Below, in pieces: positions 4,385-62,520 of a DNA stretch of 63,101 bases (the stretch's first letter is position 1; the number at the start of each line of letters is the position of its first letter). This DNA comes from an uncultured Eubacteriales bacterium (lineage in GTDB: Bacteria; Bacillota; Clostridia; Christensenellales; CAG-1252). The position numbers and the translations under genes are program-made. The stretch lies in contig CADBTQ010000061.1 of assembly GCA_902797685.1 (NCBI GenBank), positions 1 through 63,101 on the forward strand, in the 5' to 3' direction. A model generated the notes under the pieces. The model saw only the letters and a list, made by a program, of their open reading frames with translations, was not told the DNA's origin and did not search any database.

Positions 4385-4800
4385 GGGGCAAGTGGATCTC
4401 AAGGACAGCACTGCCTTGGGTAGCGGCACAAGGCGCATGAATTGTCGCATGGCGACATGAATTGACCTCACGGTCATGAATTGGGACTCCGCCCCATGAA
4501 TTCTCGCTTCGCTCCATTGCGGTGGGATAGATTGTTGTTTCACCATCGTTACGCCGTCGCTTCGCTTCGGGTAATAGACCATTCCGAGCCGATGCCACAA
4601 GTGGCAACGTGTCGAGGAATCTCAAGGGCTATGCTTACTTGGTGAGTGGTACCATGAGTGAGTGCTTTCCTTGAGACCCTTCGACTACGCTCAGGGTGAC
4701 AGGCGTAGAACGTCTTTCATCATCATAAGCAGAGCGCAAAGCGTACTGCGCTCAGAATGGTCTATTGCCCGGAGCATTGCAACGGTGCAACGGCTTCCCC
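4385..4800. repeat. intergenic mosaic of short interspersed repeat modules (region R1)
   Basis: Shares modules with 5986-6640, 7470-7760, 26760-27100 and 62105-62520. Example: 4619-4666 is the inverted copy of 6026-6073, with 4 mismatches in 48 nt. Confidence 0.85.
4436..4503 (+). repeat. tandem array of 4 x CATGAATT(G/C) cores alternating with short hairpin spacers
   Basis: Cores at 4436, 4456, 4475 and 4495, period 19-20 nt. Spacers tcgc-atg-gcga and acc-tcac-ggt are self-complementary. Confidence 0.85.
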
Positions 4801-4847: not shown

Positions 4848-4924
4848 TGGTCTGGGTGAGAAGATTTGAACTTCCGACCTCTTGAACCCCATTCAAGCAC
4901 GCTACCAAGCTGCGCTACACCCAG
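4848..4924 (-). tRNA. tRNA-Pro (anticodon GGG)
   Basis: Hand-folded cloverleaf. Acceptor stem CTGGGTG/CACCCAG, T-arm GGAAG-TTCAAAT-CTTCT, anticodon stem CTTGA/TCAAG with loop ATGGGGT, encoded CCA end. Confidence 0.9.
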
Positions 4925-5985: not shown

Positions 5986-6640
5986 CAATCGTCATTCTGA
6001 GCCAACGGCGAAGAATCTCTATGGCAGCACTCACTAACGGTACCGCTCACCAAGTAAGCATAGTCCTTGAGATGTTTCGATGCGGACGATGTCCTTACTC
6101 AACATGACAATGGTGGGAAATAGAGCTTAGATTCGCTCCACTCGCTTACGCTCGGTCGGAATGACCACTACTCGTCAACCGGTCTATTGCCCGGAAGCAC
6201 AACGTGCTGATGGCGCAACGGCAGTATCGCTTGCACCCGATTGGAGCGTATCTCATCCGCTTACCAATCGTCATTCTGAGCCAACGGCGAAGAATCTCTA
6301 TGGCAGTGCTTAACTTGGGGAATCCCTTCGCCTCGTCGCAATTCGACCTAATGGTTGGTTGACGATTGGGGCGTCAACTGCACTTTGTTGTCGATTGCTC
6401 CTCTTTGCCTCACACATTGCAAGCAATGCGCGCGGCAATTATATCAAGGCGTGAGTAGTAGACCTTTGCCCTCTTCTCCTTTAGTCTATTGCCCGGAGTG
6501 CAAAGCACGATGGCGCAACAAGGGACGCTTGGTGCCACTCACCAAGTAAGCATAGTCTTTGAGATTCTTCACTTCGTTCAGAATGACTGTGACACAGAGA
6601 CGCTCATGCGGTGGGGTGATTTGACTGAAGAGCCCTTGGC
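5986..6640. repeat. intergenic mosaic of short interspersed repeat modules (region R2)
   Basis: 846-bp gap without a credible CDS. 42-nt perfect direct repeat at 5986-6027 and 6265-6306. Modules are shared with R1, R3, R4 and R5. Confidence 0.85.
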
Positions 6641-7455: not shown

Positions 7456-7469
7456 TTTGGAAAAACGTT

Positions 7470-7760
7470 GCGCCGATGGCGCGTGAATCGGCGCTTTGCG
7501 TCATGAATTGGGGCTTTGCCCCATGAATTGGAGCGGGCGTGCCACCGCTCCGTTGTGGTAAGGAATAGAGCTTAGATTCACTCCACTCGCTTACGCTCGG
7601 TCGGAATGGTCTATTGCCCGGAAGCACAACGTGCTGATGGCGCAACGGCGGTGGGTGGATAGAGCATAGATTCGCTCGACACGATGCCACGCGTGGCATC
7701 GGCTCGGAATGACGTTGGCGTGGGTTTCCTCGACAAGTTCGGAATGACAAGCCCTTCACC
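7470..7760. repeat. intergenic mosaic (region R3) including a 3-unit CATGAATTG array
   Basis: Cores cGTGAATCG at 7482 and CATGAATTG at 7502 and 7522. Positions 7564-7648 repeat 6119-6221. Confidence 0.85.
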
Positions 7761-26759: not shown

Positions 26760-27100
26760 AAGTTTGAAATATGCTCCGCATCACGCAAGCGATTTGCGCC
26801 CTTCCCAAGCGAAGCGAGGAGGAAAGGGTATAAAGCGCGCCGACGGCGCTTACATGGATAAGATACGCTCCAATCGGACTTTGTCCTCCCTCGGTATGAC
26901 GAGACTTCATAGACGGTCAGGCGGTATCTCATCGCCAAGGCGCACGCCTTCCTTATCAAGGGGGTCCCCGCAAAGCGCAGAGCCAAAGGCGAACGCTTTG
27001 TGGGGGCGTTTGCCGCAAGGTGCAATTCACGCCGTTAGGTCAATTCATGCCGAAGGCAATTCACGCTCCGTTAGGAGCAATTCATCCACCTGTCGGTGAG
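26760..27100. repeat. intergenic mosaic (region R4) ending in an inverted-orientation CAATTCA(C/T) array
   Basis: 26856-26877 is the inverted copy of 6237-6258 (1 mismatch). Cores at 27023, 27041, 27057 and 27078. Confidence 0.85.
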
Positions 27101-27101
27101 A

Positions 27102-27617
27102 TCACATCACCCTGCACACCCAGCACGCCAACACGCTGGAAAAGAAGGTCACCGCCAACGCCACGGGTAAGGCGTAGCGGAGTTTTTTGCCCTTCGCTCC
27201 CGCAAAATACACCGCCAACACGTAAAACACCGTTTCGCTGCCTCCCACCAACACCGAGGCGCACCGACCGACGTAACTATCCACCCCGTAACGGGCGTAA
27301 ATATCTTCCAACACAGCCAGAGACCCCGCTCCCGACAGGGGGCGAATGACGAAAAGGCGGGTCAAAGGGGACGGCACGCCCAAAGCGGTGAGGACGGGGG
27401 AAAGCATACTATCCAATCCGTCTCCCAACGGGCTTTGGTTGAGCAACACGATGCAGATAAAGATGCCCGCAAGGTAGGGGAAAATGCTTGCGATCAATTT
27501 GAGGGCTTTGGTCGCCCCCGTCACGAAGGCGTCGAACACGGGCACTTTTTTGAGCGCTCCCAACCCCAAAATCCCCAGTACGGCAAGGGGCAAAATATAA
27601 TCGGCGAGATTAGGCAC
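27102..27617 (-). CDS. spmB: spore maturation protein B (nucleoside-recognition/Gate domain)
   Basis: Membrane protein paired with spmA, 8-nt overlap. Confidence 0.75.
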   Translation of the reverse strand: MPNLADYILPLAVLGILGLGALKKVPVFDAFVTGATKALKLIASIFPYLAGIFICIVLLNQSPLGDGLDSMLSPVLTALGVPSPLTRLFVIRPLSGAGSLAVLEDIYARYGVDSYVGRCASVLVGGSETVFYVLAVYFAGAKGKKLRYALPVALAVTFFSSVLACWVCRVM

Positions 27618-33694: not shown

Positions 33695-34507
33695 TTAGCG
33701 TTTTTGGTCTTTGATCTCGATGAGTCTTGCGCCGAATTGCTGCACGAAGCGATCCAATTCCCTCTTTTTGCCGGGCATCGCCCAAATGACGGTGTTGAAT
33801 TGGTCCCCGCGGGCAGCGCCTTGGTTGCGGATGGACACCGCTTGTTCCAGACTATCGGTGATGATGTTGACCACAAAGCGCATCCTGCCGCACTTGCAAA
33901 GCATAGCGAGGGCGATGATACCGAACACGATACCCAACCCCAAAGCGATCCAGTTGATCCAGTCGTAAGACTCCAACAGCGCTTGATACGGGGGGATGAG
34001 ATCGGGCTTGACGAACAGCACGATACACGCCGCGCACAGCGCCAAAAAGACGGCGCCGAAGATGAGTTTGCCCCAGCGGATGTCGCTCGCTTTGACTGCG
34101 CTGATCCCTTGCACCCTATCGATGGGGAGATCGGCGCGGGTGTAGGTGTCAAACAGCAACCTGCGATTGGTCATATACACCTTGCCCCCGCTGATAAACG
34201 AGTAGGTGTCGCACACCTCCTCTCCGTCGGCGAGCAAAAAGCCTCCCGCCATACCGCCTTGAGGCGCTTCCGCCCTCTCTTTGCGAGGTTTGGGCTCCTT
34301 CTTGGGCTTGGGCTCTTTTTCCTTGACCGGTTGGGGCTCCTCCTCCCGTTGGGGCGCCGCGTCCTCTTGGGGCGCGGGTTCCTCTTGGGGCGCGGGTTCC
34401 GCTTCGGGAAGGGGATCTTCCCTCAAAGGCTCTTGAGGCGCTTCGGGGGCGGGGTTTTCGGCGATGGGCTCCACGTCCAACAATTCTTCCATATCCAAAT
34501 TATCCAT
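33695..34507 (-). CDS. membrane protein with Pro/Glu-rich N-terminus and bacterial PH-like domain
   Basis: About 90 aa of P/E/K-rich low complexity, then ..GKVYMTNRRLLF.. and two TM helices. Confidence 0.5.
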   Translation of the reverse strand: MDNLDMEELLDVEPIAENPAPEAPQEPLREDPLPEAEPAPQEEPAPQEDAAPQREEEPQPVKEKEPKPKKEPKPRKERAEAPQGGMAGGFLLADGEEVCDTYSFISGGKVYMTNRRLLFDTYTRADLPIDRVQGISAVKASDIRWGKLIFGAVFLALCAACIVLFVKPDLIPPYQALLESYDWINWIALGLGIVFGIIALAMLCKCGRMRFVVNIITDSLEQAVSIRNQGAARGDQFNTVIWAMPGKKRELDRFVQQFGARLIEIKDQKR

Positions 34508-36470: not shown

Positions 36471-36959
36471 ATGAATATCGTTTTGTTAGAACCCGAGATC
36501 CCCCAAAATACCGGCAATATATCCCGCACTTGCGCCGCAACGGGCGCCACTTTGCACCTGATCAAGCCCTTGGGCTTTTCGTTAGACGAAAAGTCGCTCA
36601 AGAGGGCGGGGTTGGACTATTGGGACAAACTCGACCTCAAAGTATGGGAAAATTGGGAAGACTTTATCTCCCACAACGAGGGCGCACACCTTTGGTTTGC
36701 TTCCACCAAATCCGCCAAATGCTACTCGGACGTGACCTACGGCAAGGACGACTACTTGGTATTCGGCAAGGAGACGAGGGGCTTGCCCGAGCCCTTGCTC
36801 AAAGCCAATTACGACCGCTGCGTGCGGATCCCCATGCGCCCCACCTTGCGCTCTCTCAATCTCTCCAACTCGGTGGCGATCGTGCTGTACGAAGCCTTGC
36901 GCCAACAATCTTTCGAGGGATTGCAAGAGGAAGGACAACTGACGGGAAGAGAAGATTGA
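36471..36959 (+). CDS. trmL: tRNA (cytidine/uridine(34)-2'-O)-methyltransferase
   Basis: MNIVLLEPEIPQNTGNISRTCAATGATLHLIKPLGF.. is a SpoU/TrmL signature. Confidence 0.9.
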   Translation: MNIVLLEPEIPQNTGNISRTCAATGATLHLIKPLGFSLDEKSLKRAGLDYWDKLDLKVWENWEDFISHNEGAHLWFASTKSAKCYSDVTYGKDDYLVFGKETRGLPEPLLKANYDRCVRIPMRPTLRSLNLSNSVAIVLYEALRQQSFEGLQEEGQLTGRED

Positions 36960-36963
36960 TTTT

Positions 36964-37281
36964 TGTTCCGTCGGAACAAAAATCAGTGATATTTATCCCT
37001 GCGGGATAAGTGATATTGCGCGTTGCGCAGTGATATTCACGCTACCGCGTGAGTGATATTTGCGCCAAAGGCGCAAGTTGAGGTTAAAAAAGATGGTTCG
37101 AGTACGATACATAGTCAAGTACCCCAACCATCTGTTTTTTTCCATAACTTGCCTAACAGGCAAATATCACTCGCACTTCATGCGAATATCACTTTGCGTT
37201 AGCAAAATATCACTTGCGCCCTCGGCGCAAATATCACCCAAACAAAAAGGCTTCGCACTCGTTTGCGAAGCCTTTTGTTTG
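36964..37281. repeat. mirror-symmetric array: 4 x AGTGATATT-hairpin, central terminator, 4 x hairpin-AATATCAC(T/C)
   Basis: Cores at 36985, 37009, 37029 and 37052 (+) and 37163, 37185, 37206 and 37230 (inverse). All spacers are small GC hairpins. Confidence 0.9.
37086..37141. terminator. bidirectional terminator at the centre of the array
   Basis: A6-agatggtt..aaccatct-T7. Confidence 0.75.
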
Positions 37282-39708
37282 TTAGTCGTTGTCCCCTTGG
37301 AGTTGCTTGATCAAATAAGCGTATCCTTTGGGATAGTAGTCGATATTGGAGTCGGCGTATTGATCGTAGAACGCCTTTTGGAAGCTACCCGTCGCCGTGG
37401 ACACCGCTTCGCTGTACAAAGTATCGAAGATGGAAGCGCCCAAGGTACCTTTGGCGAGGTAGTAGGTGCTGCCGTCCGCTTTGACGACCTTGTACTCGTT
37501 GCCCTCGGTCACGACTTCGTATTCAAAGGCGTTGGTGACGTAGTTGAGACCCAATTCGACGTAGCCGTCTCTGCCCAACTTGACGTTGCCGTCGGCGTCG
37601 GCTTGGTTGGGATAGTAGTAGGTCAAAGCCACCAAGTGGATGCCGTAAGTGGACACGCAGTAAGCGTAGCTGCCTTCGCCGCCCTTATCCGAGAGGATGT
37701 ACACGCCTTCCTTCTCCAATTCGGCTTTGACGGTATCGGGGATATCCTTGCCGTCGTACTCGGCAAGCGTATCGCAAGCCTTTTCGAAAGAGGCGACCAT
37801 ACCGCTGTCGACGCCCTCGGGAGTCATCAGATAGCCGTACTTGTTGTCGGTGATATAAGTGAACACGCCGTCGTCCTCGTTGGCTTTGTACGACCAACCG
37901 TTGATCACGTCGAGGAAGTTGGCAAGATCGAAATCGTTGCCGGCGTCTTTGAGGTCAGCCACGATATCGTCAATGGACCCCATCACGTTGACGGGAGTGT
38001 CGTTGAGGTACTTGTTGGAGGGGCAAGCCACGCAGGTGCAGCCGTCCACGCAGGAGTACCACTCGTCCAAAGTGGTGTATTCCACTCTCTCGCCCTTGTA
38101 GTTTTGGCAATGGGGGCAGTTGCAGTCCTCGTCCTCGCATTCGGCTTCCGCGTCGTAGTCGGGGTTGGAGTACCACACGCCGATCTGCTTGGCAAGAGTA
38201 CGGGAATACTCGTCCAAAGCCTCTTGCGAAGCGGTCTTTTCCTTTTTGAAATCGTCGAGTTTCTTGCTCAATTCGTCGGTGAACTTGAAGAGGATTTGGG
38301 CGACGTAGTAGAAACCGTAGGTGGGTTGATCGTTGTCGTCGGTATAGACCTTGTGCACGATGGTGTTGCGATCGCTCAAGGTGTCCTTACCGTAGGGAGT
38401 CGACAAATACTTTTCGTATTCGGCGGCGACCAAACGGTCGTACTCGGCGTTGAGTTGCTCTTCGGAGATGGTCACGGTAGCCGTGATGAGGTCGGAAGCG
38501 GCGTTGCGGATCTGGGTGGTCAAGTTGCCGTACAAATAGTTGTCGTAAGTGCGGTAGTTGTCCTCGAGATACTTGTTGAGACGAGCCATCGCGGTACGGG
38601 CGAACTTGTATTGTTGCAACCCCTCCGCCCGCTCTTCTTCGGTCATGTCGGCGTTGACGTAATCCGACTCTTTGACTTCAAACACAAAGCGAGCTTCCTT
38701 GACGGTGTTGTCCTCTTCTTCCTCCTCTTCCTCTTTGGCGGGAGTCTTGCGAGTGGGACGAGCCGCCACGACCGAGATGTCGAAGGACTTACTGAAGTCG
38801 CCGTAGGTCACGCTGACGGTCAGGGACTCGGCGGCCTTGCTGACGGCAAAGTCTTTGACGGTGAGGTAGTCGTTGGGAATGACGACGGCTTTGTAGGTCG
38901 TCTCGCCGTCAACGTAGTCCTCGCTGACGATATCCTCGTCAAAGGTGGTGTCATTGGGATACAGCGCCACGACTTTGAGCCCCAGTTTGTCCAAACTGAC
39001 GTCGGAGTCCGAGCTGACTTCGTACACCAAGCGGATGGGTTTGTCGACGATACGGATATCGGTGTAACCCGAGGGAGTGGTGTCCCCCTTGACGGTGGCG
39101 TCGCTGGCTTCCGCCTTGACCTCGGAGAGATAATCGTCGTACAACGATTGAATAGAGTCGTTGGTCGCGCGGATGGCGGCGTTGACGTACGAATAATCCT
39201 TGTAGCAAGCCAAGATCGCTTCCATCTCGGCGTTGCGCTCCGCAAAGTAGCGGTTGAGTTCGTCCATCTTCTTCCAGTTGTAGGTGTGACCCTTGGTGGA
39301 AGCGGCTTTCATGGCGGCTACCTTGTCGGCCCCGCCGTTTTGCGCATAGTAATCGGACAGATAGTCGATGCACTTGAGAGTGTAGAGAGCGGTACGGCCC
39401 AAAGACTCGTTGCTATTTTTCAAGGTCTCGTCCAAATTGCTGAGATAAGATTGGAAAGTAGCCGCGTCGATAATCCTGTTCTGATAATAGTAGTACAGAT
39501 AGTTGTAGTAATTTTGGAAGGAAGCGTACACGTCGTTGACGTCCACGATACCCACTCTGTCGCCGAAAGACGCGACCGCGGTCACCTGTTTGCCGGCGCG
39601 TTCCTCGTTGATGCGGAACATACCCGAATCGGTGCTGCAAGCCGTAGCGGTCAACAAAGTCGCTACCAAAACTGCCACAATCAGGATAGAAAGAACTGTT
39701 TTTTTCAT
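37282..39708 (-). CDS. large PrsA/SurA-like lipoprotein with Cys-rich insert
   Basis: Lipobox LTATAC; GAGGAG RBS supports the ATG at 39708. ..STYGIHLVALTYYY resembles the parvulin core. 8-Cys cluster CEDEDCNCPHC..CVDGCTCVAC. Confidence 0.5.
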   Translation of the reverse strand: MKKTVLSILIVAVLVATLLTATACSTDSGMFRINEERAGKQVTAVASFGDRVGIVDVNDVYASFQNYYNYLYYYYQNRIIDAATFQSYLSNLDETLKNSNESLGRTALYTLKCIDYLSDYYAQNGGADKVAAMKAASTKGHTYNWKKMDELNRYFAERNAEMEAILACYKDYSYVNAAIRATNDSIQSLYDDYLSEVKAEASDATVKGDTTPSGYTDIRIVDKPIRLVYEVSSDSDVSLDKLGLKVVALYPNDTTFDEDIVSEDYVDGETTYKAVVIPNDYLTVKDFAVSKAAESLTVSVTYGDFSKSFDISVVAARPTRKTPAKEEEEEEEDNTVKEARFVFEVKESDYVNADMTEEERAEGLQQYKFARTAMARLNKYLEDNYRTYDNYLYGNLTTQIRNAASDLITATVTISEEQLNAEYDRLVAAEYEKYLSTPYGKDTLSDRNTIVHKVYTDDNDQPTYGFYYVAQILFKFTDELSKKLDDFKKEKTASQEALDEYSRTLAKQIGVWYSNPDYDAEAECEDEDCNCPHCQNYKGERVEYTTLDEWYSCVDGCTCVACPSNKYLNDTPVNVMGSIDDIVADLKDAGNDFDLANFLDVINGWSYKANEDDGVFTYITDNKYGYLMTPEGVDSGMVASFEKACDTLAEYDGKDIPDTVKAELEKEGVYILSDKGGEGSYAYCVSTYGIHLVALTYYYPNQADADGNVKLGRDGYVELGLNYVTNAFEYEVVTEGNEYKVVKADGSTYYLAKGTLGASIFDTLYSEAVSTATGSFQKAFYDQYADSNIDYYPKGYAYLIKQLQGDND

Positions 39709-39820
39709 GTTTTCTCCTCTTCTCGCGTACACTTGCACGCGTGTATATGCGATTATACAGGTCTATTATAGCCAAAAAGTAGGTAAGACGCAATCGTTTT
39801 GACCTATCTTTTGCACTTTA

Positions 39821-62104: not shown

Positions 62105-62520
62105 GGGGCGCCATCAGCACGTTGTGCTTCCGGGCAATAGACCGAGATGACGAGACCCATCACACGCCATTGTCACCCTGAGCGGAGCGTAGCGCAGTCG
62201 AAGGGTCTCAAGGACAGCACTTGCTTTGGGCGGTGAATCCCTACACCGCTGAAGCGGTCCCCTTCCCTTTAACACTTGCTCCGCAAGCACAAGGGACGCT
62301 TATGCGGATGAGATCTCTCGACGCGTCGTTCCGACTTGCTCGAGATGACGAAGGAAAGCGGATGAGATACGCTCCACGCGGCACAAATGCCTTGGTCGGT
62401 ATGACGAGTAGTGGTCATTCCGACCAAATGAACAAAGTGAATGCGTGGAGCGAATCTATGCTCTATTCCCCACCGCAGTTGCGCCATTGCGCCTAAAGGG
62501 CAATAGACCGATAGACATAG
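62105..62520. repeat. intergenic mosaic (region R5)
   Basis: 62108-62143 is the exact inverted copy of the first 36 nt of 6181-6221 and 7608-7648. 62171-62233 relates to 4660-4704 and 4397-4424. Confidence 0.85.

Follow-up and report, generated by a model that had tools for sequence, protein, structure and literature searches.

The window analysed here is a contig of 63,101 nucleotides from an uncultured Eubacteriales bacterium, and the feature under study lies in the window between two convergent genes: a trmL-like SpoU methyltransferase gene (36471..36959, plus strand; Pfam PF00588, E 1e-36), whose homologues carry the name tRNA 2'-O-methyltransferase, and a gene for an 818-aa lipoprotein-like protein (37282..39738, minus strand). 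The region between them holds two facing arrays of short cores and small hairpins, with a terminator-like hairpin at the centre, a palindrome at the left edge and a terminator at the right edge. The feature is genuine and departs strongly from randomness. It belongs, as a convergent double copy, to a known but unexplained family, the Gut-1 RNA of Rfam; that its two convergent Gut-1 units flank an inserted hairpin resembling a bidirectional terminator is well supported.

Layout and statistics of the trmL intergenic array

The left array (36985..37075, plus strand), identified by Rfam match, core count and shuffle test, consists of four units of AGTGATATT followed by a hairpin. Its cores start at 36985, 37009, 37029 and 37052, and its hairpins are TATCCC-TGC-GGGATA, GCGC-GTT-GCGC, CACGC-TACC-GCGTG and TGCGCC-AAA-GGCGCA. 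The right array (37150..37238, minus strand), which is Gut-1-like by Rfam match and cores, opens with GGTGATATT, an eighth core at 37230-37238 that is one base off AGTGATATT, and goes on with three copies of AGTGATATT whose minus-strand starts are listed as 37163, 37185 and 37206; a hairpin again follows each core, and on the minus strand these read TGCGCC-GAG-GGCGCA, TTGC-TAAC-GCAA, CGCA-TGAAG-TGCG and TGCCT-GTT-AGGCA. Each core, taken 5' to 3' on its own strand, is thus succeeded by a short hairpin, and the element has the same order whichever strand is read, namely array, centre and reversed array. The cores are 9 nt long and the spacers 11-15 nt, the period is 20-24 nt, and all eight spacers are self-complementary with Watson-Crick stems of 4-6 bp.

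Seven exact copies of AGTGATATT are present where 0.21 were expected, and none of 100 shuffles reached seven. The eight spacers form 40 stem pairs, whereas 20,000 shuffles averaged 18.6 pairs and never exceeded 28; in no shuffle did all eight stems reach at least 4 bp, and random segments of the window gave at most 26. Because neither the shuffles nor the random segments ever reached 40 pairs, the hairpins are not explained by composition, and the core and spacer shuffle tests rule out a chance or compositional origin of the array. The initial annotation had described a non-random 4 + 4 array and had suggested a shuffle check against GC-rich composition; the array and the check came out as it had proposed, and all of its coordinates and sequences were correct on re-reading. 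Its description of the spacers as unique did not hold for all of them: TTGCGCC/GGCGCAA is the stem of both the fourth hairpin of the left array and the outermost one of the right array. Part of the hairpins are conserved across genera in the main family (see below).

The last left hairpin is followed by GTTGAGG (37077..37083, plus strand), assigned as a GTTRRGG motif by comparison with the centre consensus of 43 family members, and the right array by GTTATGG (37142..37148, minus strand), assigned to the same motif by direct reading and alignment. Between A6 and T7 lies the central hairpin (37086..37141, both strands), with 20-nt arms that are 85% complementary, three mismatches and a 13-nt loop; it was present in all computed folds, RNA and DNA, and from its sequence it appears terminator-like on both strands. 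A simple terminator scan did not list it because of the loop, which exceeds 8 nt, and the three mismatches. Judged from the alignment, this hairpin is an insertion relative to the main family: the main family has a centre of ~29 nt, where the window element has an extra terminator-like hairpin of ~70 nt. The left outer palindrome (TGATTTTTGTTCCG-t-CGGAACAAAAATCA, 36957..36985, both strands) is perfect over 14 bp and overlaps the trmL stop codon; it would make a poor terminator on either strand because its T-run lies 5' and its A-run 3'. The right outer terminator (CAAACAAAAAGGCTTCGCA-ctcgtt-TGCGAAGCCTTTTGTTTG, 37239..37281, both strands) is strong, intrinsic and bidirectional and adjoins the 37282..39738 gene at its stop codon. 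Probably it represents the ancestral terminator common to both convergent genes, since the orthologous 'empty' site of a related species holds one such terminator only.

The two arrays are also joined by a long-range pairing. The segment GTGATATTTGCGCC (37053..37066, both strands) is the exact complement of GGCGCAAATATCAC (37224-37237), and this perfect 14-bp pairing, which is the window's counterpart of the closing helix P1 described below, sits inside an inverted repeat with 29-nt arms that are 90% complementary; in the window each of the two partners also has a local mate, which for the distal copy is unlike the main family. Compared with shuffles, the 331-nt element gave z values of -13 to -15 on either strand under RNA or DNA folding, and as single-stranded DNA it folds into a fully paired branched cruciform. 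A promoter scan found no promoter in or before the element, and a promoter within it was rejected; the 'TATATT' of the first core would initiate inside the structure. The earlier proposal that each convergent transcript would carry the repeats stands as geometry, since on either strand GUGAUAU-hairpin units come before the putative central terminator; the right-hand transcript, however, meets the strong terminator ahead of the array.

Gut-1 membership and the architecture of the family

The left arm (36984-37064, plus strand) matched the covariance model RF01706 (Gut-1 RNA) with 60.4 bits at a gathering score of 50 bits, and in its alignment to the model all three stems are paired and the heptamers are GUGAUAU. 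The right arm (37159-37239, minus strand) scored 45.7 bits (E 9e-8), which is under the gathering score. The paper that introduced Gut-1 classes it as a probable non-coding RNA, counts 43 representatives, gives environmental sequence of the human gut as its source and none of the sequenced organisms, and says nothing on its function (Weinberg et al. 2010, Genome Biol 11:R31; PMC2864571). The window element resembles Gut-1 in its three short covarying hairpins and in the conserved heptamer between them; the motif came from human-gut sequence, and the relatives of the window element come from gut and rumen Clostridia. It differs in having the GUGAUAU variant of a consensus that reads CAaUGAAAU-hairpin-GUGAAAU-hairpin-GUGAAAU-hairpin-UGAAAU, and in comprising two facing units around a terminator-like hairpin instead of the one published 77-nt unit. 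The class is therefore not undescribed, as the initial annotation had it, but catalogued as RF01706 since that publication and functionally unexplained. In the literature searched we found nothing on Gut-1 later than the 2010 paper, and nothing on a closing helix, a GTTRRGG centre, a B-arm, placement at terminators or tRNAs, mobility or a PF05635 link of Gut-1.

The comparison covered ~200 related loci (cited below by L numbers). A genome scan of species representatives for three GTGATAT cores at array spacing returned at least 120 loci. About 110 of these were gut or rumen Clostridia metagenome-assembled genomes (MAGs) from Oscillospiraceae, Acutalibacteraceae, Ruminococcus, Christensenellaceae and Lachnospiraceae, and the relatives of the window element were nearly all gut/rumen Clostridia MAGs and human-gut metagenome contigs; the suggestion of a general element class thus proved right, the element being widespread in gut and rumen Clostridia. 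Scan matches from other phyla, few among the matches listed, were plain tandem repeats and were set aside. In at least 36 loci a forward array was followed within ~30 nt by a reversed array, and the opposite order never occurred; many apparent single arrays turned out to be the better-conserved arm of a pair. In the naming of the present analysis, the first (forward) part is the A-arm and the part with reversed cores the B-arm.

The canonical order was read from two alignments (A2, and A3 of 42 sequences from ~40 MAGs), which show the 91-nt A-arm in 43 distinct variants, with 3-4 GTGATAT-like heptamers to the arm. A terminator hairpin opens it; CAGT comes next, then a first core (TATAT) that is degenerate, and the half-stem TTCGCC-loop-GGCGA. 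The order proceeds through GTGATAT with hairpin TGC-TwC-GCA, GTGATAT with hairpin 2 and GTGrTAT with hairpin 3, and then passes through GTTwwnGG and GGCGAATAwA to four repeats of ATATCAC plus a variable hairpin and a final TAAC. The centre consensus over 43 family members is GTT(A/T)(A/T)nGG (the GTTRRGG motif). The Rfam model spans the A-arm only, and matched it in the A-to-B orientation in all loci checked. The window element has the same forward-then-reversed order, with four forward and four reversed cores, the GTTRRGG motif and a long-range counterpart of the closing helix, together with the extra terminator-like hairpin at its centre.

The closing helix P1 joins the two ends of the A-arm through pairing of the 10 nt at either end. 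The 43 variants contribute 420 Watson-Crick pairs, 6 G.U pairs (on the A-to-B strand), no A.C pair and 4 other non-standard pairs, and position 2 covaries among A-T (17), T-A (13) and C-G (11). Covariation of P1 was also seen in other core families (L230, L117, L212 and L336), in some of which the helix is rebuilt with unrelated sequence: GATATGAACC/GGTTCATATC in L230, GAAATAAATCC/GGATTTATTTC in L117 and GATATCCGTTCC/GGAACGGATAT in L336. P1 and the local first hairpin compete for one half-stem. The two arms evolve differently, the A-arm having hairpins that are conserved across genera and cores that drift (GTTATAT, GTGGTAT, GTTCTAT), with the outermost core the most degenerate of all, whereas B-arm cores are nearly invariant and B-arm hairpins vary even between two copies of one genome. 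The loops are also unlike: on the A-to-B strand they are UUC, UAC and UUU in A-arms and GAA, GCA, GUAA, GCAA and GAAA in B-arms. As read from these alignments, the closing helix, the unequal evolution of the arms and the loop asymmetry go beyond what was published for the motif. Pairing between the cores of the two arms would give a chain of four-way junctions. Such a chain was predicted in the window but is not a conserved feature, since in the main family A-arm cores are degenerate (GTTATAT, GTTCTAT) without compensating change in the B-arm.

Stems of family hairpins are 98-99% Watson-Crick. G.U and A.C pairs number 7 and 4 in B-arms and 0 and 1 in A-arms, and an overall count in each arm's own orientation gave 6 and 11; with so few non-Watson-Crick pairs, wobble asymmetry was dropped as a test between RNA and DNA, P1 alone giving a weak signal (6 versus 0), and a wobble control on terminator-like hairpins was too noisy for use. 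The alternation of short conserved repeats with variable 'spacers', and a unit number that varies between strains, recall clustered regularly interspaced short palindromic repeats (CRISPR). However, the family repeats are 7-9 nt and the spacers 9-18 nt long, as against repeats of 23-55 bp and non-palindromic foreign spacers in CRISPR, and a CRISPR array was rejected for the window because the spacers are self-complementary and unmatched elsewhere in the window and there are no cas genes. When compared with the fetched loci, two of the eight window spacers matched a few loci. Likenesses of short motifs to phiX174/pC194 nick sites, the RNase E consensus, box C and the integron GTTRRRY core were not used as evidence.

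Placement, turnover and the linked four-helix-bundle gene

The setting of the element was tabulated for 46 oriented family members, 44 of which had a called upstream feature. This feature was co-oriented with the element in 38 of the 44 and opposed in 6, and downstream features showed no bias (22 versus 14). In 13 cases the upstream feature was the last tRNA of a cluster, always co-oriented, and 11 of these tRNAs had a gap of 34-40 nt to the element, the length of one terminator; no tRNA lay downstream of the element among the 46. Several copies are followed by a sigma-70-type promoter of the next gene and are therefore placed between a terminator and a promoter, and L157 and L141 have the array between the gene and its terminator. 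The window arms conform to this placement, the right arm lying after the terminator at 37239-37281 and the left arm after the trmL stop codon. Bacterial class C group II introns, which home to terminators, are likewise found in the sense orientation right after intrinsic-terminator hairpins; the likeness extends to target preference only, as the Gut-1 element is without intron or reverse-transcriptase features.

One explanation suggested by sense placement right after terminators and stop codons is that of a passive 3'-end module, in which array and terminator would block 3' exonucleases and catch read-through polymerases with no specific partner; repetitive extragenic palindromic (REP) elements are used comparably for 3'-end protection and termination in E. 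coli. The window element, which has its own putative bidirectional terminator and sits between convergent genes, and the order seen in L157 and L141 are in agreement with it. We nevertheless regard it as improbable: it leaves unexplained the strict conservation of the heptamer, the GTTRRGG centre, the covarying P1, the conserved A-arm loops and the near-obligatory link to a protein family that is described below, and each hairpin is followed by GUGAUAUU with no U-tract.

We compared the trmL intergenic region within the window's species and among relatives with the conserved gene order PGM, trmL, large protein, mfd. Two contigs of the species that have an identical TrmL protein have an identical intergenic region. 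The locus L003:1896-2312, also of this species, has eight units in the left arm instead of four, with right arm and centre unchanged; the extra units are duplicated two-unit blocks, and a compensatory change from TATCCC/GGGATA to TATCCT/AGGATA accompanies them. In L246 (TrmL identity 91%) the intergenic region measures 512 nt and holds 4+4 arrays with ATGATAT/ATATCAT cores, other hairpins and a 280-nt centre, in L248 (89%) it is a degenerate stub of 137 nt, and in L249/L250 (80%) it is a single bidirectional terminator of 58 nt with no array. The synteny of the 37282..39738 gene is kept in L246, L248 and L249. An array-free site in an identical gene order, which the initial annotation had named as part of the grounds for doubting the array, thus exists in a related species (L249, with the 58-nt terminator only); the absence of the array from a syntenic relative indicates that the element is dispensable or mobile at the trmL site and is no argument for chance. 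A search of the Joint Genome Institute (JGI) metagenomes with the trmL 3' end, aimed at population variation of this locus, gave no match.

Copies elsewhere tell of movement as well. L177 has two near-identical copies with unrelated flanks, and L212 and L171 have two copies each that share lineage-specific features. Phage contigs have copies behind a head-tail connector gene, in the interval from the portal to the Prp protease gene, upstream of terS and downstream of tRNAs carried by the phage. From the change in unit number, the empty orthologous site, the twin copies at unrelated sites and the phage copies, we conclude that the element, as far as sequence comparison reveals its history, multiplies, moves and decays and is dispensable at the trmL locus. 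On one of the phage contigs (L255:1600-2600) a complete A+B element lies between a small Cys-rich open reading frame (ORF) and a terS-terL-portal block; the spot before such a block is the usual location of cos or pac sites. In L335:1-358, a four-helix-bundle gene is preceded by a run of 12 or more near-identical units (GAGTGTTAT-TCGCC-nnnn-GGCGA) in place of the A-arm; this run looks like runaway tandem amplification of one unit.

These properties could be those of a selfish repeat acting at the DNA level, similar to a miniature inverted-repeat transposable element (MITE) or to REP sequences and the bacterial interspersed mosaic elements (BIMEs) built from them. The inverted site arrays would then serve a trans-acting recombinase or transposase, possibly on single-stranded DNA, where the hairpins form. 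The element would target terminator hairpins, settling on their distal side, and would have no RNA function; the four-helix-bundle gene would be cargo or accessory. The arms are always inverted, the L177 copies are near-identical at unrelated sites, presence varies between orthologous loci and unit number within a species, and there are the phage copies; furthermore, the stems are nearly perfect Watson-Crick with no wobble excess, stable DNA hairpins typically have GNA triloops like those found here, the terminator-to-promoter spacers in which many copies lie are apparently untranscribed, and the single-stranded window element gives the fully paired cruciform described above. On the other hand, no target-site duplication flanks the window element or the two L177 copies, and no transposase, RAYT or integrase occurred among the 25 families most matched by 148 neighbouring proteins, only these 25 having been inspected. 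Of the cores, the left terminal one has degenerated most, which transposon ends do not; the two arms evolve differently, and the non-Watson-Crick pairs of P1 are G.U on one strand only (6 versus 0). On balance we hold this explanation to be unlikely. A MITE or a Tn7- or Mu-like transposon with multi-site inverted ends, for which a target-site duplication and well-conserved terminal sites would be expected, is not supported by the lack of a flanking direct repeat at the window and L177 copies and by the degeneracy of the outermost A-arm core.

The likeness to REP/BIME of Enterobacteria, with their RAYT transposases, comprises extragenic palindromes in 3' or intergenic positions, inverted pairs, variable tandem number and differences between strains, and the five arrays in 63 kb of the window recall the abundance of REP. 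REP sequences are palindromes with conserved stems that are associated with RAYT proteins, and one stem sequence prevails per genome, whereas in Gut-1 the linkers are conserved and the stems differ. Membership in REP/BIME is not supported, because the window stems differ from one another, and because no Y1 transposase was found among the 25 families most matched by the 148 neighbours, which is a weak test.

The most frequent Pfam family among the 148 neighbouring proteins was PF05635 (23S rRNA intervening-sequence protein), with five members. The proteins, of ~118 aa, are four-helix bundles by their matches (Pfam E 2e-28, TIGR02436 E 9e-32, PDB 2RLD E 4e-37), and their family is related to Avd and to intervening-sequence ORFs (PMC10053308). 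We found nothing on solitary PF05635 proteins in the literature beyond a review of diversity-generating retroelements. The gene begins 40-55 nt after the B-arm, on the same strand, in five loci, with one further copy cut by a contig end and one remnant (L133, L135, L147, L219, L222, L226 and L224); further gene-bearing loci are L256-L335, L336 and L338. It thus lies directly after the B-arm in 6-7 of ~46 elements and nowhere else in those loci. Searching from the protein side gave 80 metagenome loci, 74-97% identical and mostly from human gut, of which 70 had enough upstream sequence. Two exact reversed cores were present upstream in 66 of the 70, and all 28 distinct upstream sequences, inspected by eye, had a terminator, an A-arm and a B-arm directly before the gene; Rfam Gut-1 was above threshold before the gene and on its strand. 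A co-oriented tRNA lay just upstream in 51 of 69 protein-side loci, and in L326:892-1860 the order is tRNA, 6S RNA, tRNA, Gut-1 element, four-helix-bundle gene. Each sampled member of this protein subfamily has a Gut-1 element before it, in most cases behind a tRNA gene. A 50%-identical homologue on two viral contigs has the same architecture on ATGATAT cores, the core also found at the window's orthologous site in L246. No four-helix-bundle gene or remnant was found in the 63-kb window, beside its arrays or in the centre of L246, so that the window copy is a solo form; solo forms make up ~85% of the copies sampled.

In riding a stable-RNA operon beside a strongly structured element, the four-helix-bundle gene resembles the ORFs of 23S intervening sequences. 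A diversity-generating retroelement was rejected because there is neither a reverse transcriptase nor a template/variable repeat pair near the gene. The ribosome-binding region of the gene, GAGGTGATATTATG, contains a core-like heptamer.

In three loci the last core is separated from the start codon by only 20-30 nt, which is too short for a promoter, arguing that these three genes are transcribed through the element. In other loci a TTGACT-17-TATAAT promoter abuts the last core. The latter arrangement raises the question of whether the array is an operator or iteron-like array in double-stranded DNA, whose heptamers, ~two helical turns apart, would be bound by a protein (perhaps the four-helix-bundle protein) that regulates the adjacent promoter. 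The family period, which clusters at 22-25 bp, and the abutment of the last core on the -35 box in many complete copies (ATATAAC-TTGACT) fit this idea; TATCAC(T) also resembles lambda operator half-sites and the WATCACW heptads bound by the omega protein, a likeness of short motifs not used as evidence. An operator leaves the self-complementarity of the spacers unexplained, the full range of the period is 16-27 bp, and there is no adjoining promoter at the window copy and at many others; we consider it very improbable.

We favour, tentatively and with less than even confidence, the reading that the array is an RNA platform that shows its heptamers between hairpins as multivalent binding sites. 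It draws on the architecture, Rfam membership, polarity, enrichment at tRNAs and terminators, turnover and protein linkage reported above. That the element acts as an A-to-B transcript is inferred from its polarity, the one-sided G.U pairs of P1, the GNRA-type loops of the B-arm and the genes that follow a gap without room for a promoter. Transcription of the A-to-B strand would come about through polymerases that read past the upstream terminator, or the element would form a 3' untranslated region or leader. At the window locus, the trmL transcript would pass the weak hairpin at 36957-36985, carry four GUGAUAU units and stop at the central terminator, and the right arm would be reached only via read-through of the strong terminator (37281-37239). 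The short strong hairpins would keep the conserved heptamers single-stranded and regularly spaced, so as to form a multivalent platform for an oligomeric partner, the best candidate being the four-helix-bundle protein encoded by complete copies. Solo copies, including that of the window, may be relics of complete copies or trans-acting decoys, and would equip the neighbouring genes with hairpins and a terminator at their 3' ends. CsrB/RsmZ, which titrate CsrA, and the TRAP-binding trp leader similarly have a short motif repeated and presented by a series of different hairpins; in CsrB the GGA lies mostly in hairpin loops, whereas the Gut-1 heptamer lies in linkers, and the likeness is one of possible action, not of family membership.

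Several observations weigh against an RNA platform. Strong terminators precede most family members and the right arm of the window element, and no promoter was found in or before the window element. The stems are almost all Watson-Crick, with few G.U pairs and no clear strand asymmetry, which would fit DNA palindromes equally well, and GNA-type triloops are classic stable DNA mini-hairpins. The candidate partner is neutral to mildly basic, with an isoelectric point of 6.7-9.3, that is, not markedly basic, and its gene is absent from the 63-kb window and from most elements. Finally, many loci have the TTGACT-17-TATAAT promoter immediately behind the last core, an arrangement also compatible with a DNA operator.

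A broader proposal, which on the same sequence comparisons we judge possible but somewhat unlikely, is that Gut-1 arrays and TIGR02436/PF05635 proteins form one self-spreading nucleic-acid-protein module that settles behind the terminators of stable-RNA and other operons, with an oligomer of the protein reading the heptamers and solo arrays being non-autonomous. If true, an orphan Rfam motif would gain a partner and a function open to testing, and so would a very large orphan protein family, which occurs in 23S rRNA intervening sequences as well. Gut-1 has been in Rfam since 2010 without function, organism or context, and can now be placed in identifiable gut Clostridia and some phages. The published motif is extended by a conserved architecture of larger size, by a strict polarity relative to the terminators and tRNA operons that precede it, by evidence of spread and fast turnover, and by a candidate partner protein from a large orphan family related to the Avd of diversity-generating retroelements. 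For the annotation of the window, the trmL intergenic region holds a known repeat type and not a new regulatory system.

Other arrays, neighbouring genes and repeats in the window

Three further hairpin arrays, all with CATGAATTG/GTGAATTG cores, occur in the window. One (4436-4504, plus strand) lies between fba and tRNA-Pro and has no Gut-1 match; the second (7461-7550, plus strand) follows the terminator of the MIP gene; and the third (27020-27109, minus strand) starts at the stop codon of the 27102..27617 gene and has a marginal Gut-1 match. The common grammar of these arrays with the trmL array, proposed in the initial annotation, was upheld, and 7461-7534 matches Gut-1 weakly (31 bits, E 0.0025). 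Four of the five window arrays lie behind a co-oriented gene (trmL, the 818-aa gene, the MIP gene and the 27102..27617 gene), the exception being the array at 4436-4504, which has no co-oriented gene upstream. A search for periodic 7-mers revealed no other kind of periodic hairpin array in the window; the remaining periodic 7-mers sit in coding sequence, without hairpins, and were set aside as ordinary tandem or coding repeats. Among these, the TTGGGGC repeats at 34331-34393 belong to the Pro/Glu-rich part of an ORF at 33695..34507 (minus strand) that has no Pfam match, and form no hairpins.

The 818-aa protein encoded at 37282..39738 starts with a lipoprotein-type signal (…LLTATACS) and has no Pfam match, so the label 'PrsA-like' given to it at first is unsupported. 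Its orthologues, of 806-834 aa, occupy the same place beside mfd, and one of them has a weak Big_3 match.

A second, unrelated family of interspersed repeats is present in several intergenic regions of the window, as a mosaic of 20-50-nt pieces with 92-100% identity. The pieces were located at 4568-4690, 4755-4773, 6026-6073, 6119-6222, 6530-6567, 7564-7711, 62108-62221 and 62445-62487, and some of them adjoin CATGAATTG arrays. A piece resembling this family (CATTCCGAGC...GTCGAAGAATCTCAA) was seen, by eye and unaligned, in L246, at the middle of its orthologous intergenic region. Two ordinary features complete the survey of the window: a ribosomal protein L10 leader (RF00557, 31074-31212, minus strand, 56.5 bits) and a tRNA-Pro(GGG) (4848-4924, minus strand).

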